Source of the DNA: an uncultured Ignavibacteriota bacterium
GTDB taxonomy: Bacteria; Bacteroidota; Ignavibacteria; UBA10030; BY39
Assembly (NCBI GenBank): GCA_947085405.1
Contig: CAMTWO010000013.1
Coordinates: 20,193-84,192, forward strand
Reading direction: 5' to 3'
Length of the DNA stretch: 64,000 nucleotides
The position numbers were made by a program, and so were the translations under genes. This document shows, one piece after another, positions 29,076 through 48,308 of the stretch. The notes under the pieces are model-generated. The model did not search any database. It saw only the letters and a list, made by a program, of their open reading frames with translations, and was not told where the DNA came from. The stretch's first letter is position 1. Every line of letters starts with the position of its first letter.

Positions 29076-29104
29076 TTGACATATACATTTTAATTCATTA
29101 TATT
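29076..29104 (+). promoter_or_regulatory. near-consensus sigma70-type promoter (TTGACA-N17-TATATT) for accessory operon 1
   Basis: TTGACA at 29076-29081, 17-nt spacer, TATATT at 29099-29104. About 135 nt of 5' UTR follow before ATG 29240. Confidence 0.5.
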
Positions 29105-29239: not shown

Positions 29240-32203
29240 ATGATTAAAAAATTACTAGCTTTATTTCTCACTATTCTATTAGTAACAGTTGTTACATCTG
29301 CACAAGATGGTAAGTTACGTGGTATCATCACCGATAAAACTAACGGTGAGCCCCTGATTGGTGCAACAGTGTCTCTCGAAGGCACTATGATGGGTGCAGC
29401 AAGCGATATCAATGGTGAGTTTTTCATTTTAAGTGTTCCGCCCGGAACATACAGCATAAAGACATCCTATGTCGGTTATGCTCAAGTAACAATCTCAAAC
29501 GTTCGTGTCCTCTCGAATTTTACTACTACACAAAATTTTCAACTTCTAAGCGAAGCCGTCCAAGTTGATGCAGTAGATATTTTTGCCGAACGTCCGCTTA
29601 TTCAACGAAACACAACTAACACCGTTCGGGTTACTACACAAGAAGATATCAGGAATCTCCCAATTCGTGGACTAGAAAATATTCTGAGTCTGCAAGCTGG
29701 TGTGGTAGATCAAGATAATCAACTTTATGTACGCGGTGGACGTTCAGGCGAAATTGCATATTTTGTTGATGGCGCTTCTACAACAAATCCAATTACTAAT
29801 TCACAAACATTTTCGGTAATTCAGGAAGCTGTTGAAGAACTACAATTGCAAGCCGGCGGTTATACTGCAGAATTTGGCGGTGCAAATTCCGGTATCGCAC
29901 GAACTACTCTACGCACAGGTCAAAGCAGCTATAAAGGCTCGGTCGATTTCCTAACCGATAACCTTGCTAAACCCGGTGCCGACTATCTTGGTTCATCATC
30001 GTTTGGTTACACAAATATGGTGGCTACCATAAGCGGTCCTGTGATGAAAAATTTAAAATTTTTCGTAGCTGGTCAGCATCAATTTATTAGAAATCGCAGT
30101 CTAAGGTTCATAGAACCTTTCCGTTTCGAAAATATTGTTACGGATGTAAACGATGAAGCTCCCGGTAGATCGCTCCCTGGTCCGATCGAATTCAAGAAGA
30201 ATTATATCCCCGGTAACTGGCTTCAAAATTACTCAACTCAAGGTAACCTCAATTATGAGTTACAATCAATGAAGTTCAAACTATCCGGAAGTTACACATA
30301 CGATAAATCGCCATTCGATAACAGATGGCCCACAGCTTTAACACGGTATTTCAACAAACGGTCGCGTATCGACCACAACACTACCGGATTTGCAAATTTT
30401 AGATTTACACACGTTGTTAATCCAAAAACATACTACGAAGTAGCTCTCTCTTACCAGAGTCGTTACTTCCGTCGTGTTGATCCTGATTTTGGCGACGACT
30501 GGAAATCATATACCGATAGTACTAAAAATACCGAATTAGGTTACACCGGATTCCGACGTCCTTATGCGGGCCCTTTACCTTACAGCATTATCAATGCATT
30601 TTTAATGACACACGAGAATGCACCGAATAATGCTTATTCCAAAAACCAACAAACATCTTATGGTTTTGCTGGCGACTTTACTTCTCAACTAACATCAAAT
30701 TGGGAAATAAAATTTGGTACCAGATTAGATTCATGGATCGCCCGCAATTATGCTGTTGGTAACATCCAAGGTGCAATGGAGTTTCTCTATGGTACGGACG
30801 GAAGAACACCCCGAACCTTCGCTGATGATTATGAAAGGCGTGTAAGATTATCCAAAGCCGGAACTATCAATCATTACGGCTACGATGTTGATGGTAATGA
30901 AATTAATTCAGGAATTGATGCTCCTCGAAAGCCACTTTTTGCTTCGGCTTATTTGCAAAATAAATTAGAATATCAGGACATTATACTTAATTTAGGTCTT
31001 CGTTATGAATACTTCGATACGAAGAATAAGACTTTCAAAGATCCATTACAGCCCGATTTCAACACTGATTTAGATGTTATCGACGAAACTAAATTAGAGG
31101 AAGCAAAACCGTTTAATCTCGTATTGCCTCGTGTTAGTTTTTCGTTTCCCGTTACCGATGTTACAGTATTCTATGCTATGTACGGAAAATACGCACAGAT
31201 GCCATCTTTGAATCAACTTTATATCGGAAACACAACTCTTAGCCGTACAGTCAGTCCGATAACTCGTGGAAATGCATTCTTAACTCCAGTTGGATATCTG
31301 ATGATACCCGAAAGAACGACTCAGTACGAAATGGGTATTCGGCAGTCGTTAGCTGATAATTTTGCATTTACTGTAAGTGGTTTCTACAAAGACATAAAAG
31401 ACCAATTACAAGTTCGTTCCTATGTTAATGAAGCGGGTAGCAAATTGTTTACTGCATACTTGAACGATGACTTTGGTACGATTAAGGGGTTAGAACTTAC
31501 ACTCGAACTTCGCCGAACTAACCGATTAGCTACAAAGTTTAATTACACATTATCCGATGCCCGCGGAACAGGGTCAAATTCACAATCTTCATTTGGAGCT
31601 GTTGAACAAAACATCGGACGTCCGACAAGCTTCATAAACCCACTCGATTTTAACCAAACTCATTCAGGCACATTGTTGCTTGATTATAGATTTGCTAAAG
31701 GCGATGGTGGACCGATCTTAGAACAAATGGGCGTCAATATGATACTCTCGTTCAATAGCGGACATGCATATACTAAAATAAAAGAGTTGAAAGAACTCGG
31801 ACAAGCAAACGTTTGGGACGTCGGTGTGGAACCATTGAACGATCCACGGGCAAGTTTCCCGACCGAACCACTCAACAGTTCGACAACTCCCTGGGTATAT
31901 AATATCGACCTCAACTTCAGTAAAAAGTTCAACCTTGGTGTAATCGATGCTGAATTTTATGTAAATATTATTAATTTACTCAATACAAAGGACATATTGA
32001 ACGTCTATCCAACCACCGGAACTGCCCAGGACGATGGCTGGTTAGGTAATTCGTTGGCAACACCATTCCACCAAATTCCTAACTATACCGATTTCTATAA
32101 AGCCATTAATTCACAGAACCGTTGGGCTTATATGGTGGCTACTGGAAACGATTTGTTCGGTACACCGCGTCAGGTTCGTTTTGGTCTACGGCTTGAAATA
32201 TAA
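29240..32203 (+). CDS. TonB-dependent outer-membrane receptor with N-terminal carboxypeptidase-regulatory-like domain (SusC/RagA-like architecture); paralog 1
   Basis: 987 aa. Signal peptide; KLRGIITDKTNGEPLIGATVSLEG...DINGEFFILSVPPGTYSIK (CarboxypepD_reg-like); plug region ...QRNTTNTVRVTTQEDIRNLPIRGLENILSLQAGVV...YVRGG; long beta-barrel; strong AAGGAGG RBS. Confidence 0.85.
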   Translation: MIKKLLALFLTILLVTVVTSAQDGKLRGIITDKTNGEPLIGATVSLEGTMMGAASDINGEFFILSVPPGTYSIKTSYVGYAQVTISNVRVLSNFTTTQNFQLLSEAVQVDAVDIFAERPLIQRNTTNTVRVTTQEDIRNLPIRGLENILSLQAGVVDQDNQLYVRGGRSGEIAYFVDGASTTNPITNSQTFSVIQEAVEELQLQAGGYTAEFGGANSGIARTTLRTGQSSYKGSVDFLTDNLAKPGADYLGSSSFGYTNMVATISGPVMKNLKFFVAGQHQFIRNRSLRFIEPFRFENIVTDVNDEAPGRSLPGPIEFKKNYIPGNWLQNYSTQGNLNYELQSMKFKLSGSYTYDKSPFDNRWPTALTRYFNKRSRIDHNTTGFANFRFTHVVNPKTYYEVALSYQSRYFRRVDPDFGDDWKSYTDSTKNTELGYTGFRRPYAGPLPYSIINAFLMTHENAPNNAYSKNQQTSYGFAGDFTSQLTSNWEIKFGTRLDSWIARNYAVGNIQGAMEFLYGTDGRTPRTFADDYERRVRLSKAGTINHYGYDVDGNEINSGIDAPRKPLFASAYLQNKLEYQDIILNLGLRYEYFDTKNKTFKDPLQPDFNTDLDVIDETKLEEAKPFNLVLPRVSFSFPVTDVTVFYAMYGKYAQMPSLNQLYIGNTTLSRTVSPITRGNAFLTPVGYLMIPERTTQYEMGIRQSLADNFAFTVSGFYKDIKDQLQVRSYVNEAGSKLFTAYLNDDFGTIKGLELTLELRRTNRLATKFNYTLSDARGTGSNSQSSFGAVEQNIGRPTSFINPLDFNQTHSGTLLLDYRFAKGDGGPILEQMGVNMILSFNSGHAYTKIKELKELGQANVWDVGVEPLNDPRASFPTEPLNSSTTPWVYNIDLNFSKKFNLGVIDAEFYVNIINLLNTKDILNVYPTTGTAQDDGWLGNSLATPFHQIPNYTDFYKAINSQNRWAYMVATGNDLFGTPRQVRFGLRLEI

Positions 32204-32241: not shown

Positions 32242-35200
32242 ATGAACATAAAAAAATTAAATTTACTAACAATACTTGTTGTTGTCTTCGGCTTTTTATG
32301 CTCTACTGTTTTTGGCTCTGGGATTCCAGATAAAAACAATCGCCAAAAAGATAAGTCGTTGATGAAACCAACAGGTACACCCCTTTACCAAATTCTGAAT
32401 ATTAATAACATCACCACTTGGATGCGGTCCGATGGTCAACAAAACCATTCACCCACGAGCGATAATGGTTCATATTTTCCACGTGGAACAAAATGGGCAA
32501 TTTATCAGGACGGTTTTGTATGGGGTGGAAAAGCTTATTTAGATGCCGGTTTAACTACACCGGCACCAACACAACTTATCCGTGTTGGAGGTCAAACATA
32601 CAACATCGGTACACGTGCAGGCCGCATAATGGGCACAGGTGCTACAGCAGTAGCTCAATCTCCAGCCGATGCGGATGTTCGCATTTATCGTATTCGCCGA
32701 GATTATGGTGAAATGGGAATTCAAGATCTGCAACAGGATGCTGCCGAAAGCTTCGAAGTTCCAATTGCAAGTGTAACAAAATCGCAAACTGATCAAATAT
32801 CTGATCAATATGAAAAAGATTGGGACGAGTGGCCCGTTGCTTATGGGGCACCATTTATTGAAAGGAATGGAACTCCGGGTTACCAGAAGCCCAAACCCTT
32901 TAATTATGATAAAACTAAGGGTGCTATTTTTAATACCGATTCTCTAATTGCTCATAATTATGATGAACCGGGACTTGCCGGAGTTGATCCTAAATCACCG
33001 GCAGATCAGGTTATTTGGACTGTAATCAACGACCTCGATCGAAGTGCATCTACAGGTTTATTTGGTTCAGAGCCATTAGGTCTTGAAGCACAAATTACAT
33101 TGTGGGGTTATAAACGCACCGATGCTATGGGAAATTTATACTTTAAAAAAATTAGATTCATCAATAAAGGTGGTGTTATTACAGTCCTACCTGATACCAA
33201 AGGTTCATTCCATATCGACAGTATGTATTTTGCACAATGGTCAGACCCGGATTTAGGTTCGTACGGTGATGACCTTTGCGGTGTCGATCAACCCCTCAGC
33301 TTAGGTTTTGTTTATAATGGAAATGCTGTCGATGCCGAGTATAAAAAATTCAATCTTCCACCACCGGCTGTAGGATACGACTTTTTGCAAGGTCCATTAG
33401 TTCCTGGCGCTCCAACTGACTCAGGTGTATTCAATCTCAAAAGGGTGTATGGGAAGAAGAATCTACCAATGACATCTTTTGCATATTTCTCTGCCGGTAG
33501 TGGTATTAGCGATCCACCATTTACATACGTAGGCGGTTTAAGATGGTGGAGAATGTTGCAAGGATTTGTACCCGAAGATGCAGCTACATGGAGATTATAT
33601 CCTCATCCAACTGGTGTTACTCCTACTAAATTTCCTCTTAATGGCGATCCTGTCAAGAAAACCGGCTTCATAGACGGAGCTGGGACACCCTCGTCATTTG
33701 CCCCCGGTGATCGAAGAATAGTTCTAAATACCGGACCTTTTTCACTTGCCCCCGGTGATACACAAGAAGTCGTCGTGGGTACTGTAGCCGGTTTAGGCAG
33801 CGATCGTTTCTCAAGTATTAATGTTATGAAATTTTATGACAGGTTTGTACAAAATACATACGATGCTCTATTTCAGGTTCCAAAAGCTCCATCCTCACCT
33901 GCTTTAAAAATAGCAGAACTCGATGGCGAAGTTATTCTGGAATGGGGTAGTGATTCAACGGCTGTGCTAAAAACAGAGACTCTAATTAACCAACCTGGAG
34001 ATTATCGATTTGAAGGTTATAACGTTTATCAGTTGCCAAGTGCTTCTTCCACTTTAGCCGATGCAAAGCGTATTGCAACTTATGATTTAATAAATGATAT
34101 TCCCGTTATACTTGACGAACAATTTGATAATAGATCGGGTGAAATTTTAATGCTGCCGGTTCAATATGGAACGAATAGCGGAATTATACGTCACTTCAAT
34201 TTCGTTCGTGATCATGTTTTAGATATCAATAAACTTAATAATGGGCAAGAATATTATGTAGCCGTTACTGCATATAGTAAATCAAACATACCTGGTTATT
34301 TACCAGCATCGTTAGAATCAAAACCAACTATATTTACAGTCCGTCCACAAAGTTCGACTGCTGGAAAACGATACACTGCAAAAGTGTACGACAAAGTAGC
34401 AGTAAAACTTGTAGCAGGTTCGTCCGATATTGAACTACCAGTTAAGGTTATTGACCCGTCCAAATTATTGGATGCCACATATTCCGTCTCGTTTGAAGTG
34501 GCTGGAGGGGTTACGTCTTGGCTTCTAAAAAACAAAGAGACTGGGGCACTTTTATACAAGAGTAAAAATCTCGGTTCGTTAATGTCTGGAGTGTTGAATG
34601 ATGATTTCGAATACCCTATTATTAATGGATTCCAAGTTGTAGTCGCACAGGAATCTCCCATTATTATTGAAGATTCAACGCGATGGATTCCCCAACGACC
34701 ATCTCAGTTAGACCATGGTAATCGTTATCCGGAAGGACCACCGGTTGCGCTTAGAAGTGTTACAACTGCTGAAGACTTATCCGCTCGATTCCTGGGGCAG
34801 TTTGCTTCATCATACGATATGGCGAAGTTGAAACGTGTAGAATTACGATTTGGGACTGGGAATGGCTCCAAAGCATATCGAGTTCGTCGAACTGGTGGAG
34901 GTACAGAATATTTAATTCAAACTAACGTTATTGCTGGCGTGGCACCTAATGGTGAAGGTTTTGTTAATGTTCCGTTTAGTGCTTGGGATATGGATAATCC
35001 GGGTGGTCCACGGCAAATTACCTTGAGTTGGAGAGACCAGAGCAATGATGCACGTTGGAATCCACCAACCACAGGTGATAATGTCGAAATTATTTTTATT
35101 CATGACCGGACATACGATCCACTTGGTACTCAGTATACATATCCCACTAATCCGGATCCTGCACGTCAAGGACCGGCGATATTAAATGAGGTTACTGTGG

Positions 35201-35703
35201 GTGCGAGGGCTGATATCATGTATGGTGTTTCTTTACGTTCAGTTGGTACTCAAATCGATGGTTCTGATGCTTCGGTCAGTGTAGCAACATTATATATTAG
35301 GCCCAAGTTTGTTTTAAATGATGCGTTGGTTTACGAGTTCACTACATCAGCTCCAACGTTTTCTCAGGAACTTGCCAAAGCCGATGCAGAAAAAGTTGGC
35401 GTATATCCAAATCCTTATTATGCTTTCAATCCTGCCGAAACCAACCGGTTTGTTAGGTTTGTAACATTCAACAAATTACCTGCGAAAGCAACAATAAGAA
35501 TATTCAACTTAGCCGGTCAGTTAGTTCGTACTCTCACAAAAGAGGATCCTTCACAGTTTATGCGATGGGATCTTAATAATGAGTATAATTTCCCGGTTGC
35601 AAGCGGTATTTACGTAGCACACGTGGATATGCCTGATGTAGGAGTTACCAAGATAGTTAAGGTAGCTATAATTCAAGAACAAGAAGTTCCAGATGTATTC
35701 TAA
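32242..35703 (+). CDS. large secreted protein (~1150 aa) with T9SS C-terminal sorting domain, no recognisable catalytic motif; paralog 1 (start at ATG 32242, not the track's TTG 32233, which overlaps the RBS)
   Basis: Signal peptide MNIKKLNLLTILVVVFGFLCSTVFG. Internal Fn3-like segment (...PKAPSSPALKIAELDGEVILEWG...). C-terminus VYPNPYYAFNPAET...ATIRIFNLAGQLVRTL...SGIYVAHVDM...KIVKVAII matches the type-A T9SS CTD pattern (PNP..., I.I.N..GQ.V, GIY). Confidence 0.8.
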   Translation: MNIKKLNLLTILVVVFGFLCSTVFGSGIPDKNNRQKDKSLMKPTGTPLYQILNINNITTWMRSDGQQNHSPTSDNGSYFPRGTKWAIYQDGFVWGGKAYLDAGLTTPAPTQLIRVGGQTYNIGTRAGRIMGTGATAVAQSPADADVRIYRIRRDYGEMGIQDLQQDAAESFEVPIASVTKSQTDQISDQYEKDWDEWPVAYGAPFIERNGTPGYQKPKPFNYDKTKGAIFNTDSLIAHNYDEPGLAGVDPKSPADQVIWTVINDLDRSASTGLFGSEPLGLEAQITLWGYKRTDAMGNLYFKKIRFINKGGVITVLPDTKGSFHIDSMYFAQWSDPDLGSYGDDLCGVDQPLSLGFVYNGNAVDAEYKKFNLPPPAVGYDFLQGPLVPGAPTDSGVFNLKRVYGKKNLPMTSFAYFSAGSGISDPPFTYVGGLRWWRMLQGFVPEDAATWRLYPHPTGVTPTKFPLNGDPVKKTGFIDGAGTPSSFAPGDRRIVLNTGPFSLAPGDTQEVVVGTVAGLGSDRFSSINVMKFYDRFVQNTYDALFQVPKAPSSPALKIAELDGEVILEWGSDSTAVLKTETLINQPGDYRFEGYNVYQLPSASSTLADAKRIATYDLINDIPVILDEQFDNRSGEILMLPVQYGTNSGIIRHFNFVRDHVLDINKLNNGQEYYVAVTAYSKSNIPGYLPASLESKPTIFTVRPQSSTAGKRYTAKVYDKVAVKLVAGSSDIELPVKVIDPSKLLDATYSVSFEVAGGVTSWLLKNKETGALLYKSKNLGSLMSGVLNDDFEYPIINGFQVVVAQESPIIIEDSTRWIPQRPSQLDHGNRYPEGPPVALRSVTTAEDLSARFLGQFASSYDMAKLKRVELRFGTGNGSKAYRVRRTGGGTEYLIQTNVIAGVAPNGEGFVNVPFSAWDMDNPGGPRQITLSWRDQSNDARWNPPTTGDNVEIIFIHDRTYDPLGTQYTYPTNPDPARQGPAILNEVTVGARADIMYGVSLRSVGTQIDGSDASVSVATLYIRPKFVLNDALVYEFTTSAPTFSQELAKADAEKVGVYPNPYYAFNPAETNRFVRFVTFNKLPAKATIRIFNLAGQLVRTLTKEDPSQFMRWDLNNEYNFPVASGIYVAHVDMPDVGVTKIVKVAIIQEQEVPDVF

Positions 35704-36781: not shown

Positions 36782-36806
36782 ATAATTCCCAAAAGTAACA
36801 CGTTTA

Positions 36807-36840
36807 AAAGGCTGACTTTTTTAAGTCAGCCTTTTTTTTA
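36807..36840 (+). terminator. rho-independent terminator of accessory operon 1
   Basis: AAAAGGCTGACTT-tttt-AAGTCAGCCTTTTTTTT. Confidence 0.65.
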
Positions 36841-37167: not shown

Positions 37168-39453
37168 ATGACGAAACCAAAATCATTTTATATATTACTT
37201 TTAAGCTCTCTTATCTTGGCAGTTGCTAATCTCTTCCCAAACAATAAACCGGATGATGATTTATACCAGAGTTGCATCGATATAAAATCGGGTTTAAATG
37301 TGCTGAACATCTCTTTAAAACCGGGATACGAAGATCTCTCGGCACTTGCTTATTATCGGTTTGGGCAAGGAGCAAAAATAATGAGTGCCTATCTTACAAA
37401 TGGTGAGTGCACTGAAGCTGATTCGAGTTATTATTTTCCCCATCAGATAGCCGCAAAATTGAGACAAGAAAGTTTTGCCGCAATATCAGCACTGAAAGGA
37501 GAGACTTACTATCTCTCGTTTCCCGAAATAATATCAGCTCAGAATGATGAAAAAATATATTCGCTTTGGAATGAAGATTCACTAAAAAATAAACTATATA
37601 ATTTAATTTCTACTTTCAAACCCGACGTGATATTATTATCACGCGATTGGTATTACGGAAATAAAAACCGTTCAATTGAAATACTTATAGATAAAATTGT
37701 GGAAGTGATTTCAGAAAATCATAAGGATGGAAGTTGGAAAGTATCACGTTTTTATTATGATGACCCATCAAAAAAAGGAATTAAAATTCCAGTCGATACA
37801 AAAGATTCAAGGCGCAAAAAATCGTATCGCAAAATTGGTGAAGATGCAAGGGAACATTACAACTCAATTTCACTTCAATTAGAAAAATTAAAGAGCGGGA
37901 ACGTTCCAAGTTACTCTTTAATATTTCCTTCAAAGACTAAAAAACTGAATAATATAATTGCCGGTATCCCAAGTTATGATACGAAAAAGCTGAAGAAGTT
38001 CAAGAAAGACATAGATAATTTAGCAAACGCGGTATTGAAAAACCAAAAATATGTATTAAAATATTTATCAAAATTATCGGATTCGGTTAATACTCATTTA
38101 TCATATCGAATGAATCTTACTCAAGCAGAATACAAAATATTCTTGAATTGGAAAATAAATTTAGATAAAATAAGGAATGAGTTATTAGGAGTAAAACTAT
38201 ATTATACAATCAGCGAAACAATTTTAACAAACCGCCAATTAACTATTTTACAGATAGATTCTGTAACTGGCTTATCTAAAAACGGAACAACAGAATTATT
38301 TTTTCCCGGTGTAGATGATGATTGGGTCATCAACGAAAGTAATCAAAAGAGGCAACCACTGGTAATAGGACAGGAGTATCGCATTTTATCGCCGGCAAAC
38401 CTCGAATATAGCTATCCCTACGAGATTTATAATTTGGATAAACCATATCTTAAAAATCAGTTTTATTTTTTTGTTATTCATTCCTCAAATGTTAAGGAAG
38501 AAAATTTTGTTTATAAGCAGATAATCCATTTCGATTTCGCACCTCGCTTTACAACCGAAATAGTAACGCCATTAGTATTTGCTCCGTTAGCTAACGGAGA
38601 CAACGAAAAATTGATCTTCCGGTTGACAAATCATTCGAGAGATGGATTCGCAGACTATGTTACAGCGTCTGATAGCGCATTAGTAAGTTCCGATACTATA
38701 AATGTGAAGCTTAGTTATAAAGGAGCGGAGTATTTAGATACATTGAGTTTATTTTTTAAACAGGGGATTCAGGTTGGCGATAATCTCTTGAAATTAAAAA
38801 TCGGTGGTGAAGCTGTTGCCAATTTTGTTGCCCGGCGATATGATATAGCTGTTGATCACACGAAAAGAGTAGGGTTGATTTCTTCGCAGACGAATTCGAT
38901 AACTAAATTAACATTACAAAGACTTAATGTAAAATTTGTAGAACTGAACGACATGAACTTATTACAAACCTATGTAAATAATTTAGATGTAATAATTATT
39001 GATAGAAATTCTACAGATAAACTGAAATCTTTTAAGAATTTAATTGAACCCTTTGTGGCTGCGGGTGGAAACCTAATTGTGTTATCTCAGGATAATAGTT
39101 TTTGGGATTCATCGAAACTGTTTAGCGATATAAAATTAACCCGGTCGTTCATTTATGATGAAAACTCACTTGTTCAAATAGATTCTAACCATAGCATACT
39201 AAATACCCCCAATAAAATTAGCGGAGCAGATTTTGAAAATTGGATTTATGCTCGAACTTCAAATGAAGTAAGTATTACTTCAACAAAAGAAATAGAATTT
39301 CCGATAATGTCATCAATCGACAAAACACCCCTTATAGTAACCCAAAAGTATTTAAAAGGCACAGTTATTTATGTGAATATGGCATTACAGTATCAATTAT
39401 TGAACCTACAGGAGGGGGCGTATAAAATATTAGCGAACCTCATCTCGTTTTGA
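37168..39453 (+). CDS. secreted hypothetical protein with degenerate LmbE/PIG-L-like N-terminal region and GATase1/ThuA-like C-terminal region
   Basis: 761 aa; signal peptide. VLNISLKPGYEDLSALAYYRFGQGAKIMSAYLTNGE aligns to the LmbE motif (HPDDE...G.GG...TLTDGE) but His/Asp ligands are replaced (KPGYED). C-terminal ...DVIIIDRNSTD...FVAAGGNLIVLSQD resembles class-I glutamine-amidotransferase-like folds. No Shine-Dalgarno before the ATG. Confidence 0.7.
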   Translation: MTKPKSFYILLLSSLILAVANLFPNNKPDDDLYQSCIDIKSGLNVLNISLKPGYEDLSALAYYRFGQGAKIMSAYLTNGECTEADSSYYFPHQIAAKLRQESFAAISALKGETYYLSFPEIISAQNDEKIYSLWNEDSLKNKLYNLISTFKPDVILLSRDWYYGNKNRSIEILIDKIVEVISENHKDGSWKVSRFYYDDPSKKGIKIPVDTKDSRRKKSYRKIGEDAREHYNSISLQLEKLKSGNVPSYSLIFPSKTKKLNNIIAGIPSYDTKKLKKFKKDIDNLANAVLKNQKYVLKYLSKLSDSVNTHLSYRMNLTQAEYKIFLNWKINLDKIRNELLGVKLYYTISETILTNRQLTILQIDSVTGLSKNGTTELFFPGVDDDWVINESNQKRQPLVIGQEYRILSPANLEYSYPYEIYNLDKPYLKNQFYFFVIHSSNVKEENFVYKQIIHFDFAPRFTTEIVTPLVFAPLANGDNEKLIFRLTNHSRDGFADYVTASDSALVSSDTINVKLSYKGAEYLDTLSLFFKQGIQVGDNLLKLKIGGEAVANFVARRYDIAVDHTKRVGLISSQTNSITKLTLQRLNVKFVELNDMNLLQTYVNNLDVIIIDRNSTDKLKSFKNLIEPFVAAGGNLIVLSQDNSFWDSSKLFSDIKLTRSFIYDENSLVQIDSNHSILNTPNKISGADFENWIYARTSNEVSITSTKEIEFPIMSSIDKTPLIVTQKYLKGTVIYVNMALQYQLLNLQEGAYKILANLISF

Positions 39454-39489: not shown

Positions 39490-39518
39490 TTGACAACCAT
39501 CGGGATATTCCTTATATT
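39490..39518 (+). promoter_or_regulatory. near-consensus sigma70-type promoter (TTGACA-N17-TATATT) for accessory operon 2
   Basis: TTGACA at 39490-39495, 17-nt spacer, TATATT at 39513-39518. About 148 nt of 5' UTR follow before ATG 39667. Confidence 0.5.
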
Positions 39519-39666: not shown

Positions 39667-42600
39667 ATGATTATTAAAAAGTTACTATTTCTTTTTATTT
39701 TGCTCTTTATAGTTGTATCCATAAGTTTTGCTCAAACAACAGGTAAGCTAAATGGTAAAATTATCGATAAAGAGTCGCGAGAAGCTCTCATCGGTGTTAA
39801 CGTTATGCTCGAAGGCACAACGCTTGGAACCGTTACCGATGTAGATGGAAATTACATAATGTTAAATGTTCCTGTCGGCACTTATAATTTAATTGTGCGA
39901 TACGTAGGTTACCGGGAAGTTACAGTGAAAAACTTAAAATCGATGGTGAGTTTTACAACAACTCAAAACATAGAGTTGAGTTCCGAAGCTGTAGAACTCA
40001 AGGAAGTTGTGATCTCAGCGGAGCGGCCCCTAATACCCAAAGACCAGACTGGGACTGTTCGTGTTGTAACCTCAGAGCAAATTCAATTAATGCCGGTACG
40101 TGGTATCAGGGAAATGGCAGCTACTACTGCTGGTGTTGTGCAGGGTGAAAGAGGCGGCGAACTTAATATCCGGGGTGGTCGGTCAGAAGAAACAGGTTAC
40201 ATTGTCGATGGTGTTTGGACGAATAATCCTTTAACAGGTGGCTCAACTGCTTTTGTCAGTCAACGAGCAATTCAAGAAATGATAGTGATGACCGGTGGAT
40301 ATAGCGCCGAATACGGAAACGTGATGAGTGGTATTGTTAACGTCTCCACAAAATCCGGTAAACCAAATTATTTCGGTAGTTTTGAATATGTAACAGATGG
40401 ATTTCTGGGTGATGGAGTACAAGGGTGGCGAAATAATGGTTACCAATTGTATAATTTAGCATTTGGCGGACCTGTTATTCCTTCTAATAAAAACATTTTA
40501 CAATTCTTTGGCTCTTTTGAATATACATTTAACAGAGATCCAAATCCAAGTTACAACTCTGAAAGACTCAGCGACCTTTCTAATAGTATTTGGCCCAAAT
40601 TTAAGGAAGTAACAGTAAATTATATTCAAGAAGGTCTTCAAAGACTACCCAAACTGCCGAGTGAAGAAATTGATAAACGAGCTAAAGAATTATTATTAGA
40701 CCAACCGAATTGGAATTTAGCACGTCCTGGTCAAATGCCAGATGGTGCTTCGCTACGTCTTGCTTGGAACGAAAAATTAACTGCTAATTTAGGAGACTTC
40801 CGTGTTAATTTGGGTGGTATATCCTCGAGAACGTGGGCTCGTTCAAGGGTGTTCAGCTATACTTTGATGAATGCGTTCCACAATCCAATGACAAATTCAG
40901 TCAACGACCAATATACTTTACGAGTTACCTGGGCACCTCAACCAAAGACATTTGCTGAAATTCAGGGAAGTTATTTTTACACTTATTCTGATTACATGGA
41001 TCCTGTCCATGAAGATAGAGTCTTCGATTATGGAGATCCTGCAAAAAACCCCCTCTTCTTCAATTATTTTCCTCCGGGGGTAGATCCCAGCCAGTTGAGA
41101 GCATCAAGAATTCCGATGGATACATATTTAGGGATGTTTGCTTATCCAGGTCGGGTGTATAATGGATATGGATTTAATAAAACAACATTTTGGCAATTTA
41201 ACGCAAACGTAACTCATCAATTGGGTGAACACGAAATTAAATTAGGTGGTGAGTATAAAATCCATCAATTGCGCGCTTATGCAATAGGGCCTCTTAGTTT
41301 AGCTTTATTGCGACCGGGTATAATCGATACGTTACGGAATGGGTTGTATGATCAATTAACAGTAGCACAAAAATCTTACGTTCTTAAAGAATATGCATCA
41401 CGAGGTATCAATACTTATGGTTATGATTATTTCGGTCGGGAAGTTGATTATGACGGATACGTTAAGAGTGAACGGAGTGAAGGTCCCAAAGAACCTATCT
41501 TCGGCGCTTTGTATTTACAAGATAAAATGGAATACCAAGATTTTATTGTAAATGCCGGACTCAGATTTGATTATTGGGATTCTAACACGGATGTATTAAA
41601 AGATTTATACGATGTTGCTAATAGTAAAAATACTACACAATATGGATCACCAGAAAACTTTAAGCGATTGTTTCCAAATAAATCAGTTCCAGCAGATGGT
41701 TGGGGAAATCCAAACAAAATTGAGGACGACAGTTTTGAAGAATCAAAGCCATTCCTGATATTCAGCCCAAGGTTAGGCTTCTCTTTCCCCGTCTCTGAAA
41801 GAATGGTATTTTTTGCTCAATATGGGACATTCGCACAGATGCCCCCACTTTCGAACCTTTATATGAGTTCCGACAGGCTGCGCGAATGGTATTTAGCCCC
41901 CGGCTATTTTTCAATAAATAATCCTCGATTACGACCTCAAAAAACTACTCAATACGAATTAGGTATTCGTCAGCAATTAGGTGAAGTAGCAAGCTTAAAT
42001 ATTACAGCTTACTACAAAGAAATTACTGGACTTATTCAATTAGGTGTCATTGAATCACGTTGGAACAATACGACCTTCTCAACTCTTCAAAATGGTGATT
42101 ACTCGACTGTACGCGGATTTGATCTATCATTTGATTCACGGCGTTGGAATAATTTAGCTGCTTCTGTAAACTATACATTGTCGTATGCAACAGGTACAGG
42201 TTCCGATCCCGGCACGTTAGGCACAATTCTTTGGTTGAATGCGAGAGCTCCAAAATTTGAATCCCCACTCGATTTCGATCAGCGTCACACAATTGCTGCA
42301 ACATTAGATTACCGTTTCGGAAAAATGGATAATGTATTTTTAAATCAACTCGGTATGAATTTATTATTCAGAAGTAACAGCGGTAGGCCCTATACACTAA
42401 ATGATCCAAGTATTCCACCAACCGACTCACGAATAAAACCTCAATCAACAATTAACGCTAATTACAGCGATTGGAATTTTAGGTTCGATTACCGAATTGA
42501 TAAAACTTTTGAATTACCTATTTCCAATATGAGGTTGAATACTTATATATTAATTTTGAATTTGCTGGACAGAAAAAATATTGCTAGCGTATGGGCTGGT

Positions 42601-42789
42601 TCAGGTCAACCTGATCAAACTGGATATACTCAAACCCCGGATTTCAAAGCAACAATCCAGAGAATGATCGAACAAGATAGAGCTGATGAAGTACCTGTTT
42701 TCACCGGAATATATAATATGTACGAGATGCAACCGAGCTTCGTAGGTGCACCTCGGCAAGTCAGATTTGGACTTATTTTAGAATTTTAA
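39667..42789 (+). CDS. TonB-dependent outer-membrane receptor with N-terminal carboxypeptidase-regulatory-like domain; paralog 2
   Basis: 1040 aa. KLNGKIIDKESREALIGVNVMLEG...VDGNYIMLNVPVGTYNL; plug ...TGTVRVVTSEQIQLMPVRGIREMAATTAGVV...NIRGG; C-terminal ...APRQVRFGLILEF. Co-linear with 29240..32203. Confidence 0.85.
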   Translation: MIIKKLLFLFILLFIVVSISFAQTTGKLNGKIIDKESREALIGVNVMLEGTTLGTVTDVDGNYIMLNVPVGTYNLIVRYVGYREVTVKNLKSMVSFTTTQNIELSSEAVELKEVVISAERPLIPKDQTGTVRVVTSEQIQLMPVRGIREMAATTAGVVQGERGGELNIRGGRSEETGYIVDGVWTNNPLTGGSTAFVSQRAIQEMIVMTGGYSAEYGNVMSGIVNVSTKSGKPNYFGSFEYVTDGFLGDGVQGWRNNGYQLYNLAFGGPVIPSNKNILQFFGSFEYTFNRDPNPSYNSERLSDLSNSIWPKFKEVTVNYIQEGLQRLPKLPSEEIDKRAKELLLDQPNWNLARPGQMPDGASLRLAWNEKLTANLGDFRVNLGGISSRTWARSRVFSYTLMNAFHNPMTNSVNDQYTLRVTWAPQPKTFAEIQGSYFYTYSDYMDPVHEDRVFDYGDPAKNPLFFNYFPPGVDPSQLRASRIPMDTYLGMFAYPGRVYNGYGFNKTTFWQFNANVTHQLGEHEIKLGGEYKIHQLRAYAIGPLSLALLRPGIIDTLRNGLYDQLTVAQKSYVLKEYASRGINTYGYDYFGREVDYDGYVKSERSEGPKEPIFGALYLQDKMEYQDFIVNAGLRFDYWDSNTDVLKDLYDVANSKNTTQYGSPENFKRLFPNKSVPADGWGNPNKIEDDSFEESKPFLIFSPRLGFSFPVSERMVFFAQYGTFAQMPPLSNLYMSSDRLREWYLAPGYFSINNPRLRPQKTTQYELGIRQQLGEVASLNITAYYKEITGLIQLGVIESRWNNTTFSTLQNGDYSTVRGFDLSFDSRRWNNLAASVNYTLSYATGTGSDPGTLGTILWLNARAPKFESPLDFDQRHTIAATLDYRFGKMDNVFLNQLGMNLLFRSNSGRPYTLNDPSIPPTDSRIKPQSTINANYSDWNFRFDYRIDKTFELPISNMRLNTYILILNLLDRKNIASVWAGSGQPDQTGYTQTPDFKATIQRMIEQDRADEVPVFTGIYNMYEMQPSFVGAPRQVRFGLILEF

Positions 42790-42815: not shown

Positions 42816-45800
42816 ATGAAAATAAAATTTTTATTGGTGTTTCTATTTGCTTTGTCCTTCTCATTGGGATATTCATTGGATATTGAATCTTCTAGAAAGG
42901 CTGCTCTAGGACCACACAAGCCAATGATTATCGAACGAAAAGCTATGGATATTAATACCATTAATGCTTGGTTCCGAAATGAGGGTGAGTTTTATAGCGA
43001 CCACAAAACTACTGGTCCTGGTTTTGAGTGGCCCAAAGGTGGAAAAGTTCACGCTATTTTTTCTTCGTCAATGTGGATTGGAGCGAGAGTAGTTAACCCT
43101 GAAGATACAACTAAAAAGGATATCCGGGTTGCTACAGTTGGTCATTTTGGTTCAGAGCACCGTCCGGGTATAATTTTACCAGACGGTACTGCTGACGATT
43201 TTACCCGCCCGAAATATCGATATTATCGGGTGCGTCCTAACGAAGATTCTCCTCGCACGAGTGCCGATTATGCGGAATGGCCTGCTGAAGACGGCGCACC
43301 TTTTCACGATGTTGACAAAGATGGTATATATAATCCAAATGTAGATAAACCAGCATTAGTCTGGGGAGACCAAATAGTTTACCCGGATATGTTGATGTTT
43401 GCGGTTTACAATGATGCTGAAGAAGCTTATCATAATTGGATTTGGGGGAGAAGTAAACCATTAGGTGCTGAAATCCGGCAGACATCGTGGGCCTATAATC
43501 GTGCAGGACCGTTCGGTCAAATGCAATTTATGAAGTTTGAAGTTATTAACAAAAGTAACGCTCCATGGGATTCTGCTTATTTGGTAGTATGGTCCGATCC
43601 AGATATGGGAGATGCTTTTGATGATGCTTCAGGCGTCGATACAACAATCGTCAATCCTAGAACAAAAGAAAAACGGAATTTAGGTTATGTTTATAATGGT
43701 ACGAATACTGATGCGGGTTATGGAACAGCTCCACCGGCTGTTGGTTATAAATATTTTCAAGGACCCCGCTTAAAAACCGATCTTATTACTGATACTGCAA
43801 AGTGGTCGGGGCAATTGCTACCTGGTTATAAAAATTTAAATGTTTCCGGGTTCAATTTTTATTGTAACCCTGGACAAGGTGGCTGCACGAATCCTGATTG
43901 GTATGACCCGTTCTTATTTTTGCAATCTTATAATGTTATGCAAGGTCTAACTCGTACCGGCAGAAGATGGGTATGTGAAGGCGATACAACTTATTTTATG
44001 TTCGCCGGAGACCCTGTTACAAACACAGGTTGTACCTACTCAGACTTACTGCAACCCTCTGATGTTAGATTTACTTTACCGGCTGGTCCTTTCACAATTA
44101 TGCCTGGTGATACACAACAAGTAGTAATAGGTATAATTGTTGGAAGAGGCTCTAATAACTTAAATAGTATTAGCGTATTACGCACCTATGCCGATATGTC
44201 GCAAATATTATTTAACAATAATTTTAAGTTACCTCCTGCTCCACCAAGCCCTAAAGTTGAGCACAGCTGGATTGATGGAAAAATAATTTTATCCTGGGAC
44301 AAAGACAAAGCATCAAGAACTTTCAGGAACCCGGATGAAAAATTCTTTAACACTGTCTGGAAATTTAATGCATTTACTATTTATCAAACTAACGATCCAC
44401 TTCTAAGACCCGGTGCACGTACTGAAAAACTTGGAACATACTATAAAAAAGGTGATTCGTCGAAAGTGAAAGATTTTGTTATATTCCCAGGAGTTGACGA
44501 CCCCGTCCTGGCCACTATTTGGGAAGGTGATTTTGAAGGTATAATAGATCAACTCGTTTTAACAGAGGATCGAATCAATTCTAAACCATTTATACCGGGA
44601 AGACCTTATCACTTCATCATTACTGCCTCTGCAGTTGATTCTAATTATAACCCTTTAGATTCAGCAAGAATTAAAGACCTAAGCGGATTGATTTTATTAG
44701 AATCACCGAAAAATGTAATTACAATAATACCAAAAAATCCTGTTCTTGGGACTGAGTTTCCGAGTGGTAACGATTATGGTTCTGTTATTCCTCATAATAA
44801 GTGGAAATCTCTTAAAAATTATGACGATGCAGTTCAAGTGAAAGTTGTTGATCCGTGGCGAACTGAAAATAAGAAGTATCGAATTACATTACAAGGTAAT
44901 GACCCATCAAATACATTAAATGTAACTTCTTGGTCACTACTTGAATTGAATTCAAATAATGAAGTAGTTGATACTGTAATTGCAAATTATAATAATTTTA
45001 ACGGAGGGACTGATTATCCTGTGGTGTCAAACGTTATGCCTGTTGTACAAAATTTACCTATTGGAGTCAGGCGGCGTTTTCAGGTACCATCTGGTTTCTC
45101 ATACCAAGGGAAACGTTGGTTTACAGGTTTGAGAGGACCCCAGATGGATGATACATTAGCTTCAATACAAATTACACCAACTCGACGAGCACCTGTAACT
45201 GGTGTTGTTTCATATCCACAAATAGGTAGATACACAAACGCAATTACAGGTTTACGCCCGGATAGCTTACGGCGTGTTGAAATTCGTTTTTCAAAAACAA
45301 ATACACAAAAAGCATATAGATATGTCACTGGTTTTGAGATTAGGCCGATAAAAGGCCCGATTCATTCAGAATTTAGACCATATTTAGTAGATTCTACTGG
45401 ATTCGGCTATTTATATCAGGATTACCAACAATATAGGATGGGTATTCAGGACAGTGGTTATGTCGTACCGTTTACCGTTTGGGAAGTTGATTCTTTATAC
45501 GGAGATGGGAAACCACGACAATTGGATGTTGCGATAGTTGAAAGAAACGATTCGATGCGTGTCGTCCGAAAAGATATTTATGGAAGAGATAGCATTGTTC
45601 ATGTTTACAGAGGTAAAATTGACGCAAAATGGGATCCTTCTCCCTATACCGGTGAAAATCATTCTGAAGGTGATGAAGTAATTTTGGTATTCCGCTCTTC
45701 TTACTCAGATACTGCGAAACCAGAGTACACTAAAAAAGATAGAGATTACAAAGATTTCGAGTTTAAAAATTTGCCTTTAATGTACATTATAGTAATGCGC

Positions 45801-46298
45801 AAAGTAAATGAACAATCAAATTTTGCTGATGGAGATGTTATCGCCATCCGGCCTAACTATGCTTTAAATACAGACAAAATTTTTGAGTTCGAAGTTAAAG
45901 CTCCACAAGTAGGCTTTTCAGAAATCGCGAAACAGCGTGACGAGATGCGCAAAATTAAAATTGTTCCAAATCCGTACTATGCATCTCATCAACTGCAGGC
46001 TGATCCATTTGATAGTTATGTAACCTTTACCAATCTTCCTACCAGAGCAAAGATTAGAATTTTTAATTTAGCTGGTGATATGGTAGCGGTTGTAAATCAC
46101 GACTACCAAGGACAAATGGATAACAGCTCTACACGTTGGGGTCTCAAAAATCACGCCAATATTCCTGTAGCAAGTGGAATGTATATTGCACATATCGAAG
46201 GTTATGGACTTGATGAGCATGGAGGGGAAGTGAAAATAGGTGAAAAGGTGTTGAAGTTTGCAATATTCATACAAGAAGAACGACTTGACACATTCTAA
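42816..46298 (+). CDS. large secreted protein (~1160 aa) with T9SS C-terminal sorting domain; paralog 2
   Basis: Signal peptide MKIKFLLVFLFALSFSLG. Shares blocks with 32242..35703 (PPAVGYKYFQGP / PPAVGYDFLQGP; FTIMPGDTQQVVIGIIVGRGSN / FSLAPGDTQEVVVGTVAGLGSD; LPPAPPSPKVEHSWIDGKIILSWD). C-terminus IVPNPYYA...AKIRIFNLAGDMVAVV...SGMYIAHIEG...KVLKFAIF is a T9SS CTD. Confidence 0.8.
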   Translation: MKIKFLLVFLFALSFSLGYSLDIESSRKAALGPHKPMIIERKAMDINTINAWFRNEGEFYSDHKTTGPGFEWPKGGKVHAIFSSSMWIGARVVNPEDTTKKDIRVATVGHFGSEHRPGIILPDGTADDFTRPKYRYYRVRPNEDSPRTSADYAEWPAEDGAPFHDVDKDGIYNPNVDKPALVWGDQIVYPDMLMFAVYNDAEEAYHNWIWGRSKPLGAEIRQTSWAYNRAGPFGQMQFMKFEVINKSNAPWDSAYLVVWSDPDMGDAFDDASGVDTTIVNPRTKEKRNLGYVYNGTNTDAGYGTAPPAVGYKYFQGPRLKTDLITDTAKWSGQLLPGYKNLNVSGFNFYCNPGQGGCTNPDWYDPFLFLQSYNVMQGLTRTGRRWVCEGDTTYFMFAGDPVTNTGCTYSDLLQPSDVRFTLPAGPFTIMPGDTQQVVIGIIVGRGSNNLNSISVLRTYADMSQILFNNNFKLPPAPPSPKVEHSWIDGKIILSWDKDKASRTFRNPDEKFFNTVWKFNAFTIYQTNDPLLRPGARTEKLGTYYKKGDSSKVKDFVIFPGVDDPVLATIWEGDFEGIIDQLVLTEDRINSKPFIPGRPYHFIITASAVDSNYNPLDSARIKDLSGLILLESPKNVITIIPKNPVLGTEFPSGNDYGSVIPHNKWKSLKNYDDAVQVKVVDPWRTENKKYRITLQGNDPSNTLNVTSWSLLELNSNNEVVDTVIANYNNFNGGTDYPVVSNVMPVVQNLPIGVRRRFQVPSGFSYQGKRWFTGLRGPQMDDTLASIQITPTRRAPVTGVVSYPQIGRYTNAITGLRPDSLRRVEIRFSKTNTQKAYRYVTGFEIRPIKGPIHSEFRPYLVDSTGFGYLYQDYQQYRMGIQDSGYVVPFTVWEVDSLYGDGKPRQLDVAIVERNDSMRVVRKDIYGRDSIVHVYRGKIDAKWDPSPYTGENHSEGDEVILVFRSSYSDTAKPEYTKKDRDYKDFEFKNLPLMYIIVMRKVNEQSNFADGDVIAIRPNYALNTDKIFEFEVKAPQVGFSEIAKQRDEMRKIKIVPNPYYASHQLQADPFDSYVTFTNLPTRAKIRIFNLAGDMVAVVNHDYQGQMDNSSTRWGLKNHANIPVASGMYIAHIEGYGLDEHGGEVKIGEKVLKFAIFIQEERLDTF

Positions 46299-47382: not shown

Positions 47383-47420
47383 AGGGTTGTTCTTTTTTGA
47401 GAGCAACCCTTTTATATTTT
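47383..47420 (+). terminator. rho-independent terminator of accessory operon 2
   Basis: AGGGTTGTTC...GAGCAACCCT (one mismatch) followed by TTTTATATTTT. Confidence 0.55.
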
Positions 47421-47434
47421 ACACAGATTGACGA

Positions 47435-48308
47435 AATGATATTCTATTCTATTTTATTATCTTTCTTGTATCCATTTTCGTACATTCAAGATTCTAGCTA
47501 TTCATCTTTTCAGATAGATACATTAGTCTCTGAATCGTCAGTATTTTCTTTGGATTACGAAGGTAATACTTATATTCTTGATAAAGAAAACCATAAACTT
47601 TTTAAATTTAATTCGCAAAATAAATTTCAAAAAGAAATAGGAGGCATTGGTTGGGGGCAGTTAAATTTCGATACACCAGTGGCAGTTGATGCTTCTTATG
47701 GATTGAATATATTCGTATCTGATTATTACAATAATCGCATCCAAAGATTTAATCGCAATTTAGAATTTATCAGTTCATTATCCGGCGAGTCTTTTAAATC
47801 CACTAATATTCACTTTGGGCGGCCTTCTTTTTTAGCTGTCGATAGGTTTTCGAATCTATATTTTTACGATTCTGAAAATAAGAATATTATGAAAATTACT
47901 TTCAACGGACTTCAGGTTAAAGACGTTAGGATAATCGGGGATTATCGGTTAGTACCAGATCCCATTCAATTTGCTATAACGAACGACGATAAATTGTATG
48001 TTTTAGAATCGAATAAAATATCCGTTTATGATAGTTGGGGTACATTTTTACACTCACTCCAGTTAGAAACTCCCCAATCTGTTCGTGCTTTTTGTTTATC
48101 CGAAAAAGAAATTTATATTGTCATTGGCGACGAAATGATTATAATAAATCACACGGGCGAACTGCTGAACAAAATTAATATTGCAGAATATTTTCAATTG
48201 CCATCATCAAATCGAATTGCCGATGTGAAAATATTTCAAGATAGATTGCATTTTTTAACTAATAAAATGATATTGGTCTGTCCGACAAATTTATTTTTAT
48301 CAAAATAA
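47435..48308 (+). CDS. NHL-repeat beta-propeller protein (start moved to ATG 47435; the track's 47397 start lies inside the upstream terminator hairpin)
   Basis: Hydrophobic N-terminus MIFYSILLSFLY. Repeats such as NIFVSDYYNNRIQRFN and NLYFYDSENKNIMKI are NHL-type (vaD..N.Ri..f). Confidence 0.65.

Follow-up and report, generated by a model that had tools for sequence, protein, structure and literature searches.

What could two apparently secreted proteins of more than 1,150 residues, with no recognizable catalytic domain, be doing at the surface of a bacterium, and with which partners would they be doing it? The question is raised by a stretch of 64,000 nucleotides from an uncultured Ignavibacteriota bacterium (assembly GCA_947085405.1, contig CAMTWO010000013.1, positions 20,193 to 84,192; hereafter the window, at its full length), which encodes giant protein A (1153 aa, 32242-35703, + strand) and giant protein B (1160 aa, 42816-46298, + strand), a distant paralogue of A that forms a subfamily of its own. 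Judged from gene content and gene order, each giant gene occupies the central position in an outer-membrane operon of three genes, made up of a TonB-dependent barrel, the giant and a PorV/PorQ-like barrel (hereafter a triad), and this predicted operon is conserved across about ten bacterial phyla.

The three-gene operon and its two copies

Triad A begins with a promoter-like site (29076..29104, +; TTGACA-17-TATATT) and continues with gene 1, a TonB-dependent barrel of 987 aa in which a CarboxypepD_reg extension precedes a Plug and a 22-strand-type barrel (29240..32203, +), the gene for giant A, and gene 3, an outer-membrane barrel of 348 aa that falls in the PorV/PorQ family by NF033709 (35735..36781, +), before closing at a terminator-like hairpin with a 13-bp stem and a subsequent run of T (36806..36835, +). 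Triad B has the same layout, with a promoter-like site of the same TTGACA-17-TATATT form (39490..39518, +), a TonB-dependent barrel of 1040 aa with the architecture of its triad A counterpart (39667..42789, +), giant B, a PorV/PorQ-family barrel of 346 aa, again by NF033709 (46323..47363, +), and a terminator-like hairpin (47383..47410, +). The two promoter-like sites, which are consensus matches only, each agree with the consensus at 11 of 12 positions, score identically and are the two best matches of a 20-kb scan; the upstream regions of the triads are unalignable and have no shared regulatory element apart from these hexamers. Intergenic gaps are 26-38 nt between the TonB-dependent barrel and the giant and 24-31 nt between the giant and the PorV-like barrel.

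Relatives were sought using one genome per species, which yielded at least 592 confirmed relatives in Ignavibacteria, Melioribacter, KSB1, Latescibacterota, Marinimicrobia, Calditrichota, Gemmatimonadota, Fidelibacterota and metagenome-assembled genomes labelled as Bacteroidota, and 80 loci were retained for the analysis of gene order. The prevailing order in these loci is TonB-dependent barrel, giant, PorV-like barrel, and the TonB-dependent barrel gene lies directly upstream of the giant in 59 of the 63 testable loci, across at least eight phyla. The layout recurs in Zixibacteria and in Eisenbacteria, each represented by a single sampled locus; the third gene at these loci (~340 aa) has no Pfam match, and its membership in the PorV family was not itself tested. 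Because all three components differ between the triads of the window (35% identity for the TonB-dependent barrels, 29% for the giants and 43% for the PorV-like barrels), the whole triad was duplicated as a unit. No description of the triad or of the giant family and its C-terminal tail was found in the literature searched, which does not prove its absence elsewhere.

In both first genes a PF13620/PF13715 extension (residues 26-112 and 28-116) is followed by a Plug (PF07715) and a barrel (PF00593), both above cutoff, which places them among the TonB-dependent transporters (in triad A, PF13620 at 4.5e-17, PF07715 at 4.1e-7 and PF00593 at 2.1e-26). The Oar subclass of such barrels is defined by a CarboxypepD_reg extension, a Plug with a TonB box and a barrel, and Oar is required for the secretion of PopC in Myxococcus (PMC6434023); by architecture only (extension, Plug and barrel), the first genes may be assigned to this subclass. 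The N-terminal extension in triad A also matches PDB 6ytc_A, a solved N-terminal domain of a TonB-dependent transporter (4.8e-8), and a TonB-box-like strand read by eye, VxIxAERPLI, is conserved in gene 1 across phyla. The SusC/RagA model TIGR04056 scores 61.7 in triad A and 84.3 in triad B against a cutoff of 368, covering only the N-terminal ~140-200 residues, and the giants, whose genes adjoin these SusC/Oar-type barrels, have no match to the SusD family.

The third genes are matched nearly over their full length by the PorV/PorQ family model NF033709 (cutoff 90), with 142 bits in triad A and 170.2 bits in triad B, and phmmer matches gene 3 to the PorV of F. johnsoniae (6h3i_F, 5.6e-8). Scores for the equivalogs PorV (NF033710, cutoff 250), PorQ (NF033711, cutoff 220) and PorV2 (NF052325, cutoff 325) are below cutoff throughout, at 62.4, 80.4 and 54.6 for triad A and 67.9, 80.0 and 78.1 for triad B. 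On such scores, which are slightly nearer to PorQ, the gene 3 barrels form a distinct predicted subfamily; the barrel of triad B additionally has a weak match to Toluene_X (FadL/TodX) at 1.7e-4.

A sequence-only reading of this DNA had described the giants as two proteins of about 1160 aa with signal peptides and shared conserved blocks, and this description holds. The open reading frames (ORFs) and a full-length BLASTP comparison agree, with A and B aligning end to end at 26% identity and an E of 1e-86, well above chance, and the N-termini, MNIKKLNLLTILVVVFGFLCSTVFG in A and MKIKFLLVFLFALSFSLGYS in B, look like Sec signal peptides on inspection. Every quoted block is present in both proteins: WSDPDLG at residue 333 of A and WSDPDMG at residue 259 of B, PPAVGYDFLQGP at residue 374 of A and PPAVGYKYFQGP at residue 306 of B, PGDTQEVVVG at 504 (A) and PGDTQQVVIG at 430 (B), and PNPYYA...IRIFNLAG at 1056/1085 (A) and 1051/1080 (B), the one departure being LQGP in A at the position that had been given as (F/Y)QGP. 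For A, the ORF list starts at a TTG (32233); the ATG at 32242 is preferred because an AGGAG sits 9 nt upstream of it. An antisense ORF of 121 aa inside giant gene A (34296-34661, - strand) is most likely spurious, since it lies within a well-conserved coding region of the other strand.

The C-terminal domain and its tail

Pfam and NCBIfam matches of the giants are confined to the last ~110 aa. In A, this part is a C-terminal domain (CTD) like those used by a type IX secretion system (T9SS), with seven predicted strands and closest to the CTD of PorZ (residues 1041-1142, 35362..35667, +). Protein A scores 26.4 with TIGR04183 (cutoff 23) and 20.9 with PF18962 (cutoff 27) and matches the PorZ C-terminus in NF052228 at 9.8e-10, whereas B has no TIGR04183 match at E<=0.01 and scores 14.5 with PF18962 (cutoff 27); the Pfam matches in this region, to Por_Secre_tail and FlgD_ig, are all sub-threshold. 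The PorZ model NF052228 (cutoff 260) matches the CTD only, at 37.5 bits over model positions 667-757, and the match to the PorZ structure, PDB 5m11, is likewise limited to its C-terminal ~90 residues. The earlier description of the giants as T9SS cargo is thus borne out in part: A passes TIGR04183, while B fails it, both proteins are below the Pfam cutoff, and the C-terminus is not canonical. A canonical type-A CTD is a beta-sandwich of seven strands and ~70-100 aa, and the protein stops at its last strand, typically in K-x-x-hydrophobic run-K/R; A has the seven predicted strands, but its chain runs 11 conserved residues further.

This tail (IIQEQEVPDVF in A, residues 1143-1153, 35668..35700, +, modelled with low confidence; FIQEERLDTF in B) follows the final strand of the CTD in every complete triad protein (47 of 47) and every A-type match (120 of 120), and it always ends in F or Y. 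Its consensus is K-L-A-I-I-Q-E-Q-(E/Q)-(V/I/F)-L-(D/E)-x-(F/Y)-COOH, or IIQEQxxLxx[F/Y] in short. The possibility that the tail is the beta-signal of an outer-membrane protein was considered and rejected, as the tail has hydrophobic residues at -1/-4/-5 and an acidic residue at -3, while the ends of the neighbouring barrels follow a -1/-3/-5 pattern.

The presence of the tail tracks the presence of the third gene. Tail and downstream PorV-like gene occur together at 57 loci (54 with strict tails and three with variants), and the 10 giant ORFs with a degenerate or missing tail have no PorV-like gene downstream, most of them retaining the upstream TonB-dependent barrel; most of the 10 end in ...IQP..., and two are probably split by frameshifts. 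The single exception is locus L047, in which a tailed giant is followed by a second barrel-giant pair instead of a PorV-like gene. Such co-occurrence is the pattern that docking of the tail to the barrel would predict. At seven loci (L031, L040, L042, L043, L049, L064 and L069) the giant closes in ...KLAVIQP(Q/R/E)..., its tail being degenerate, and no PorV-like gene follows, although most of this subclass retain the TonB-dependent barrel upstream; it looks like a natural variant that has lost both tail and PorV-like barrel.

A sister class has the head and part of the C-terminal half in common with B (57% and 36% identity to B) and ends in ...TKKMVLIR/K, with matches to PF18962 or PF13860 and without the conserved tail. 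Neither barrel gene is present at its three sampled loci (3/3), where the members stand in tandem with other T9SS cargo. At one locus, probably from the same organism as the window (L082:3526-12871, Logan ERR4904396), tandem paralogues of 1149 and 1153 aa with the same head and canonical T9SS tails are followed by a 794-aa BNR/sortilin-like T9SS protein, with no barrel genes nearby. The canonical-tail proteins P0133 and P0143 are probably from the same genome as protein A, which would imply a working T9SS in this organism.

Head, cassette and genomic surroundings

Upstream of the CTD, protein A is composed of a signal peptide (residues 1-25), a compact beta-rich head domain with two long helices (residues 44-548, 32371..33885, +), a beta-sandwich like that of fibronectin type III (FN3) or immunoglobulin (Ig) domains (residues 549-700, 33886..34341, +; predicted strands with a predicted local distance difference test score, pLDDT, of 70-90) and a middle region of further beta domains that behaves as an exchangeable cassette (residues 701-1040, 34342..35361, +). 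The full-length AlphaFold2 model has a pLDDT of 81. Searched domain by domain at E<=5, Pfam matches neither the head nor the FN3-like segment nor the cassette, and searches of PDB chains by sequence (phmmer with A and B, hmmsearch with a 50-sequence profile) returned only the PorZ CTD, 5m11, at E 0.63. By these comparisons, A and B belong to a large, uncharacterised family of predicted secreted surface proteins that has neither a curated domain nor a solved relative at the level of sequence. The sequence-only reading was therefore justified in proposing a new family of surface proteins, while its view of each giant as an isolated gene overlooked the conserved three-gene operon, which says more about the giants than any other observation. 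Its report of no protease, glycoside hydrolase (GH) or lectin signature likewise agrees with the Pfam, NCBIfam and PDB sequence searches and with the lack of an HExxH motif in either protein.

A confident match of the N-terminal 800 aa to an enzyme or adhesin family would have pointed elsewhere, and none emerged. Foldseek comparison of the whole chain with the PDB gave only Ig/FN3-array noise, with template-modelling (TM) scores of at most 0.18, and the head was therefore re-predicted alone (pLDDT 92, predicted TM score 0.92). The matches of this model are at the level of fold, with ~300-330 aligned columns, a TM of ~0.25, 9-12% identity, E values down to 2.7e-4 and probabilities of 0.9-1.0, and they fall on the N-terminal beta-supersandwich of GH94 cellobiose phosphorylase, GH116 beta-glucosidase, cyclic glucan synthase, GH149 and GH65. 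An enzyme of the GH94/GH116/GH65 type was rejected, as the (alpha/alpha)6 catalytic barrel is absent, the model is all-beta after the head and there is no Pfam or PDB sequence match.

The head extends well beyond the giants. Among 1.84 billion representatives searched, its profile matches 4,849 clusters (50% identity) at E<=1e-3, and 1,544 of them at the stricter E<=1e-30; in the matches listed, the host proteins are 311-1,972 aa long and in nearly all the head starts near host residue 40. Some members measure only ~605-650 aa and finish in canonical T9SS ends, so that little beyond a head and a CTD can fit in them, and these members together with the confident domain model identify the head as an autonomous unit.

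The conserved blocks had also been put forward as a candidate functional site, and this is plausible, as conservation across the superfamily peaks in them. Positions conserved in at least 90% of 253 diverse members are D193, W197, P198, G202-A203-P204, N263-D264, E282, W333, D335, D337, G339, D344, G347, D349, Y358-N359, D364, P374-P375, G378, G384-P385, D490, R492, G498-P499, D506 and Q508, and they coincide with the WSDPDxG, PPAVGY and PGDTQ blocks. The invariant set of the acidic cluster consists of D193, W197, D264, E282, D335, D337, D344, D349, Y358, N359, D364, D490, R492 and Q508. The Asp-rich loop D-x-D-x-G...D-D-x-x-G-x-D, taken with the Arg, Tyr, Asn, Gln and Trp residues, suggests a putative Ca2+-assisted site for a polar ligand, which would most plausibly be a glycan. 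No His or Cys is among the positions conserved at this level, and a peptidase identity (metallo-, serine or cysteine, gingipain or M6) was rejected in view of this absence and of the missing HExxH; the M6-like model NF052323 matches the giant only in the CTD.

The 'Fn3-like unit' of the sequence-only reading is supported by structure prediction and not by family models: residues ~553-700 form a predicted beta-sandwich with Foldseek matches to FN3 arrays at low TM (6mfa, probability 0.84), while Pfam fn3 (PF00041) has no match at E<=5. The unit is conserved together with the head, at a mean identity of 63%. The cassette has a different history. In the closest relatives of A, the head is 85-87% identical and the CTD with its tail 91-96% identical, while residues 701-1040 are only 14-32% identical; some relatives with heads at 58-68% identity nonetheless reach 42-56% over the same residues. 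At least five cassette types occur among 121 A-type proteins, the similarity of heads and cassettes is correlated at a rho of 0.31, and cassettes are effectively unrelated in 41 of 131 pairs with heads at least 80% identical. As the history of the cassette is discordant with that of near-identical heads and CTDs, the middle third is considered an exchangeable module, and the pattern points to either recombination or diversifying selection acting where the protein is exposed. Four longer family members (P0069, P0086, P0093 and P0094; 1,289-1,330 aa) contain a CHRD domain (PF07452), and a repeat-rich protein of 634 aa that appears CHRD-like by eye and has no NCBIfam match (L029:905-2806) is encoded upstream of the triad at seven loci.

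Several other genes recur around the triad. Between the triads of the window lies a gene for a 761-aa protein with a weakly PIG-L/LmbE-like N-terminus and a DUF7408 C-terminus (37168..39453, +), which has no NCBIfam family; its homologues are directly downstream of the triad in 24 fetched loci (33% identity, E 9e-141 to L007:10656-13187), and the module may thus include it as a fourth gene. Directly after triad B, an NHL-repeat protein of 303 aa (47397..48308, +) starts inside the terminator region, and homologues occur near the triad at 11 loci (e.g., L034:12818-13801). A GWxTD-domain protein (TIGR04514, E 8e-21) is found downstream of the triad at 21 loci, including L024:13214-15232, and near the Eisenbacteria triad (L084:237-1511), with none adjacent in the window; the GWxTD domain was not found in the literature searched.

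The window upstream of triad A (1-28972) holds rplL, rpoB, rpoC, the S10/spc/alpha operons (secY, rpoA, rplQ) and an EngB-type GTPase. The same junction of ribosomal genes, EngB and triad is present at locus L001, and an EngB-like gene is upstream of the triad at six other loci. Further downstream in the window, a 515-aa protein (59222-60769) has a match to an ORC-CDC6-like ATPase (PF24389, 5e-8), an unusual finding among bacterial housekeeping genes, and next to it are genes for a HIT-family protein and a large amidohydrolase. Two genes, 53693-54409 (+, 238 aa) and 54481-55590 (-, 369 aa), have no Pfam or NCBIfam family, the latter being the sole sizeable minus-strand gene in its part of the window.

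A proposed mechanism, its rivals and known systems

The reading tentatively preferred here, with confidence somewhat below even, is that the giant is exported by the T9SS, held by its own PorV/PorQ-like barrel beside a TonB-dependent transporter, and there presents its head for the capture and import of a ligand. The giant would cross the inner membrane via Sec, using its signal peptide, and the outer membrane via the T9SS, using its CTD. The CTD would be neither cleaved nor attached to lipopolysaccharide, and CTD and 11-residue tail would instead dock non-covalently on the cognate PorV/PorQ-like barrel; retention and docking are proposed because the best matches of the CTD are to the C-terminus of PorZ, which is anchored via PorQ. 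The ~500-aa head would thereby be placed beside or above the TonB-dependent barrel, where its Asp/Asn/Arg/Tyr/Trp site, probably Ca2+-assisted and most plausibly directed at a glycan, would capture or process the substrate. This site is proposed on the basis of acidic and aromatic positions at least 90% conserved and of a fold resembling the accessory supersandwich of carbohydrate enzymes. The TonB-dependent barrel would then import the captured substrate, an energised role proposed because the Plug and the TonB-box-like strand are conserved, and the exchangeable cassette would tune specificity or surface exposure.

Precedents exist for several of these steps. PorQ anchors PorZ, which keeps its CTD, at the cell surface (PMC5562754), and a review has put forward the hypothesis that 'cognate PorV-like beta-barrels' shield CTDs from cleavage, as with PorZ/PorQ and with type-B cargo and PorP/SprF (PMC10202324). 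Cargo with a type-B CTD is anchored by a cognate PorP/SprF-like barrel and not by anionic lipopolysaccharide (PMC9143113). Surface-exposed partners of TonB-dependent transporters are an established principle, as in SusCD and in BtuB-BtuG (PMC10404256). T9SS-type CTDs are also found outside the Bacteroidota, in Fibrobacter, for which T9SS-dependent export was proposed by the authors (PMC6851124).

Several observations weigh against the capture-and-import reading. A near-universal, low-copy triad beside housekeeping genes fits a core role in the envelope at least equally well. Export by a T9SS depends on SprA/Sov and GldKLMN/PorKLMN, and PorU cleaves the CTD. Protein B fails all T9SS-CTD thresholds, and the core genes of the T9SS are not in the 64-kb window, the genomes at large not having been searched for them; a T9SS outside the Bacteroidota is backed only indirectly, by the canonical-CTD paralogues, probably from the same genome, and by the Fibrobacter literature. 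The proteins that lack both tail and PorV-like gene may derive from one or two clades, and thus from few independent events. The pairwise distances of the three triad proteins correlate (r = 0.92, 0.85 and 0.91) and largely reflect the species phylogeny that the proteins share, for which reason these mirror-tree correlations are not counted as proof of co-evolution. Codon usage gave no expression signal for the triad genes, as the codon adaptation index was uninformative (0.713 for the ribosomal reference, 0.69-0.73 for the triad genes and similar values for most others).

A broader claim, which we consider doubtful though worth stating, is that the triad is an unrecognised outer-membrane machine, near-universal in the non-Bacteroidota phyla of the Fibrobacteres-Chlorobi-Bacteroidetes (FCB) group, in which two barrels would hold a non-lipoprotein of ~1,150 aa through docking of CTD and tail, as the functional counterpart of SusCD in phyla without SusD. 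In its radical form, the barrel pair itself would be needed for the export or assembly of the giant, independent of general T9SS attachment.

The giant could alternatively be a structural canopy or a major surface protein, part of a core envelope scaffold or surface layer; held by the PorV-like barrel and packed against the large one, it would then be required for the organisation of the outer membrane. This is unlikely, and the distribution of the triad is what speaks for it: the triad is present in most sampled non-Bacteroidota FCB lineages in one or two copies, and its neighbours are housekeeping genes (both in the window and at L001, engB and the ribosomal operon; by inspection, serA-like and aminotransferase-like genes at other loci), its position being outside accessory loci of the polysaccharide-utilization type. 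Envelope-type neighbours (PIG-L-like, GWxTD and NHL) recur, and an exchangeable cassette would suit an exposed surface that diversifies antigenically. There is also the precedent of BamG, a FadL-family barrel that packs against BamA and holds a surface protein, BamH, by its extracellular loops (PMC12578637). Yet the Plug and TonB-box-like strand that the large barrel keeps belong to energised transport, the polar site of the head is so deeply conserved that ligand binding or catalysis would be a more usual role for it than a place in a lattice, and the same head is found on free cargo with canonical T9SS ends.

If the Oar-type barrel itself secreted or displayed the giant and the PorV-like barrel retained it, the triad would be a self-contained display system for which a T9SS is perhaps unneeded. 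The Oar-subclass architecture of gene 1, as defined in PMC6434023, is consistent with such a role, as are the adjacency of barrel and giant at 59 of 63 loci, the retention of the TonB-dependent barrel by giants that lack both tail and PorV-like gene, and the occurrence of the triad in phyla where a T9SS was not verified in this analysis. We regard it as quite unlikely: the CTD is homologous to T9SS CTDs, the head is also carried by proteins that end in canonical T9SS tails and are encoded without any barrel, a plugged 22-strand barrel could hardly pass a folded multidomain protein of 1,150 aa, and an N-terminal extension is also part of the architecture of importing SusC-like transporters.

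It is very unlikely that the giants are ordinary T9SS cargo, i.e., free adhesins or enzymes attached by the general T9SS next to functionally unrelated barrels. The signal peptide, the T9SS-like CTD with the TIGR04183 match of A, and homologues annotated as 'T9SS type A sorting domain-containing protein' are all compatible with this, and the sister class is truly free cargo; synteny kept over ~10 phyla, the operon signals, duplication of the whole triad and a class-specific tail that tracks the PorV-like gene are not. A FadL-type channel function for gene 3, with uptake of an amphipathic or hydrophobic product from the giant while the TonB-dependent barrel takes the polar part, is highly improbable, for although PorV/PorQ proteins are FadL homologues and the triad B barrel has its weak Toluene_X match (1.7e-4), the fit to the PorV/PorQ family model (142 and 170 bits) is much closer than that to the FadL model, and the strict link between cargo tail and gene 3 is what an anchor predicts and a channel does not.

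The interest of the anchored-capture reading lies in where such systems have been described. TonB-dependent uptake with surface partners is known almost only from the lipoprotein systems of the Bacteroidota (SusCD, BtuBG), and T9SS anchoring almost only from Porphyromonas and Flavobacterium. If the reading is true, one operon would show how a surface subunit is added to a TonB-dependent transporter in a dozen phyla, most of them uncultured, among which are Ignavibacteria, KSB1, Marinimicrobia, Latescibacterota, Calditrichota, Gemmatimonadota, Zixibacteria and Eisenbacteria. A tail that appears and vanishes with a barrel gene offers a natural, sequence-defined case for testing the idea that a cognate PorV-like barrel protects and anchors a CTD. 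Additionally, an unannotated head superfamily that has ~4,800 clusters and an invariant acidic site constitutes a sizeable gap in the annotation of metagenomes.

Among the known systems, PorZ-PorQ has in common with the triad a T9SS-type CTD whose retention, under the mechanism proposed above, would dock a large surface protein on a dedicated barrel of the PorV/PorQ family. PorZ is built of two beta-propellers, in contrast to the supersandwich-like head, FN3-like domain and cassette of the giant, and it lacks the tail IIQEQxxLxx[F/Y]. The giant and its barrel are co-encoded in an operon with a TonB-dependent transporter, mostly outside the Bacteroidota, and the triad is far below the equivalogs (37.5 against 260 for PorZ, 80 against 220 for PorQ). 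The type-B cargo systems SprB-SprF and PG1035-PorP are similar in that the cargo gene adjoins its own small outer-membrane barrel (PMC9143113); they differ in that the CTD of the giant is of type-A or PorZ-like sequence (CHU_C at only 0.063), its barrel is of the PorV/PorQ and not the PorP/SprF family, and the unit includes a TonB-dependent barrel.

As with Oar of Myxococcus xanthus, the domain architecture of gene 1 is identical (PMC6434023), though Oar is not encoded with a passenger or a PorV-like barrel and PopC has no T9SS-type CTD. BamG-BamH provides a comparable arrangement, with a 14-strand FadL-family barrel set against a larger barrel and holding a surface protein by extracellular loops (PMC12578637), but BamH is a lipoprotein, the large barrel is BamA and likeness in sequence is shown only at the level of the FadL superfamily. 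The N-terminal beta-supersandwich of GH94, GH116, GH65 and GH149, a galactose-mutarotase-like fold, is the best structural match of the head, with ~40% of the head unaligned, no relationship at the level of sequence and the catalytic (alpha/alpha)6 barrel absent. SusC-SusD and BtuB-BtuG share with the triad a TonB-dependent barrel of ~1,000 aa with a carboxypeptidase-regulatory-like extension, co-encoded with a putative surface capture protein. Unlike SusD and BtuG, the giant is not a lipoprotein, is unrelated to them, is about two to three times larger and has a signal peptide and a T9SS-type CTD; further, the triad has a third protein, the PorV-like barrel, and its large barrel fails the SusC/RagA model. 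As far as its genes and domains indicate, the triad resembles the anchoring of PorZ by PorQ combined with the transporter-plus-partner arrangement of SusCD, and it is a member of neither.

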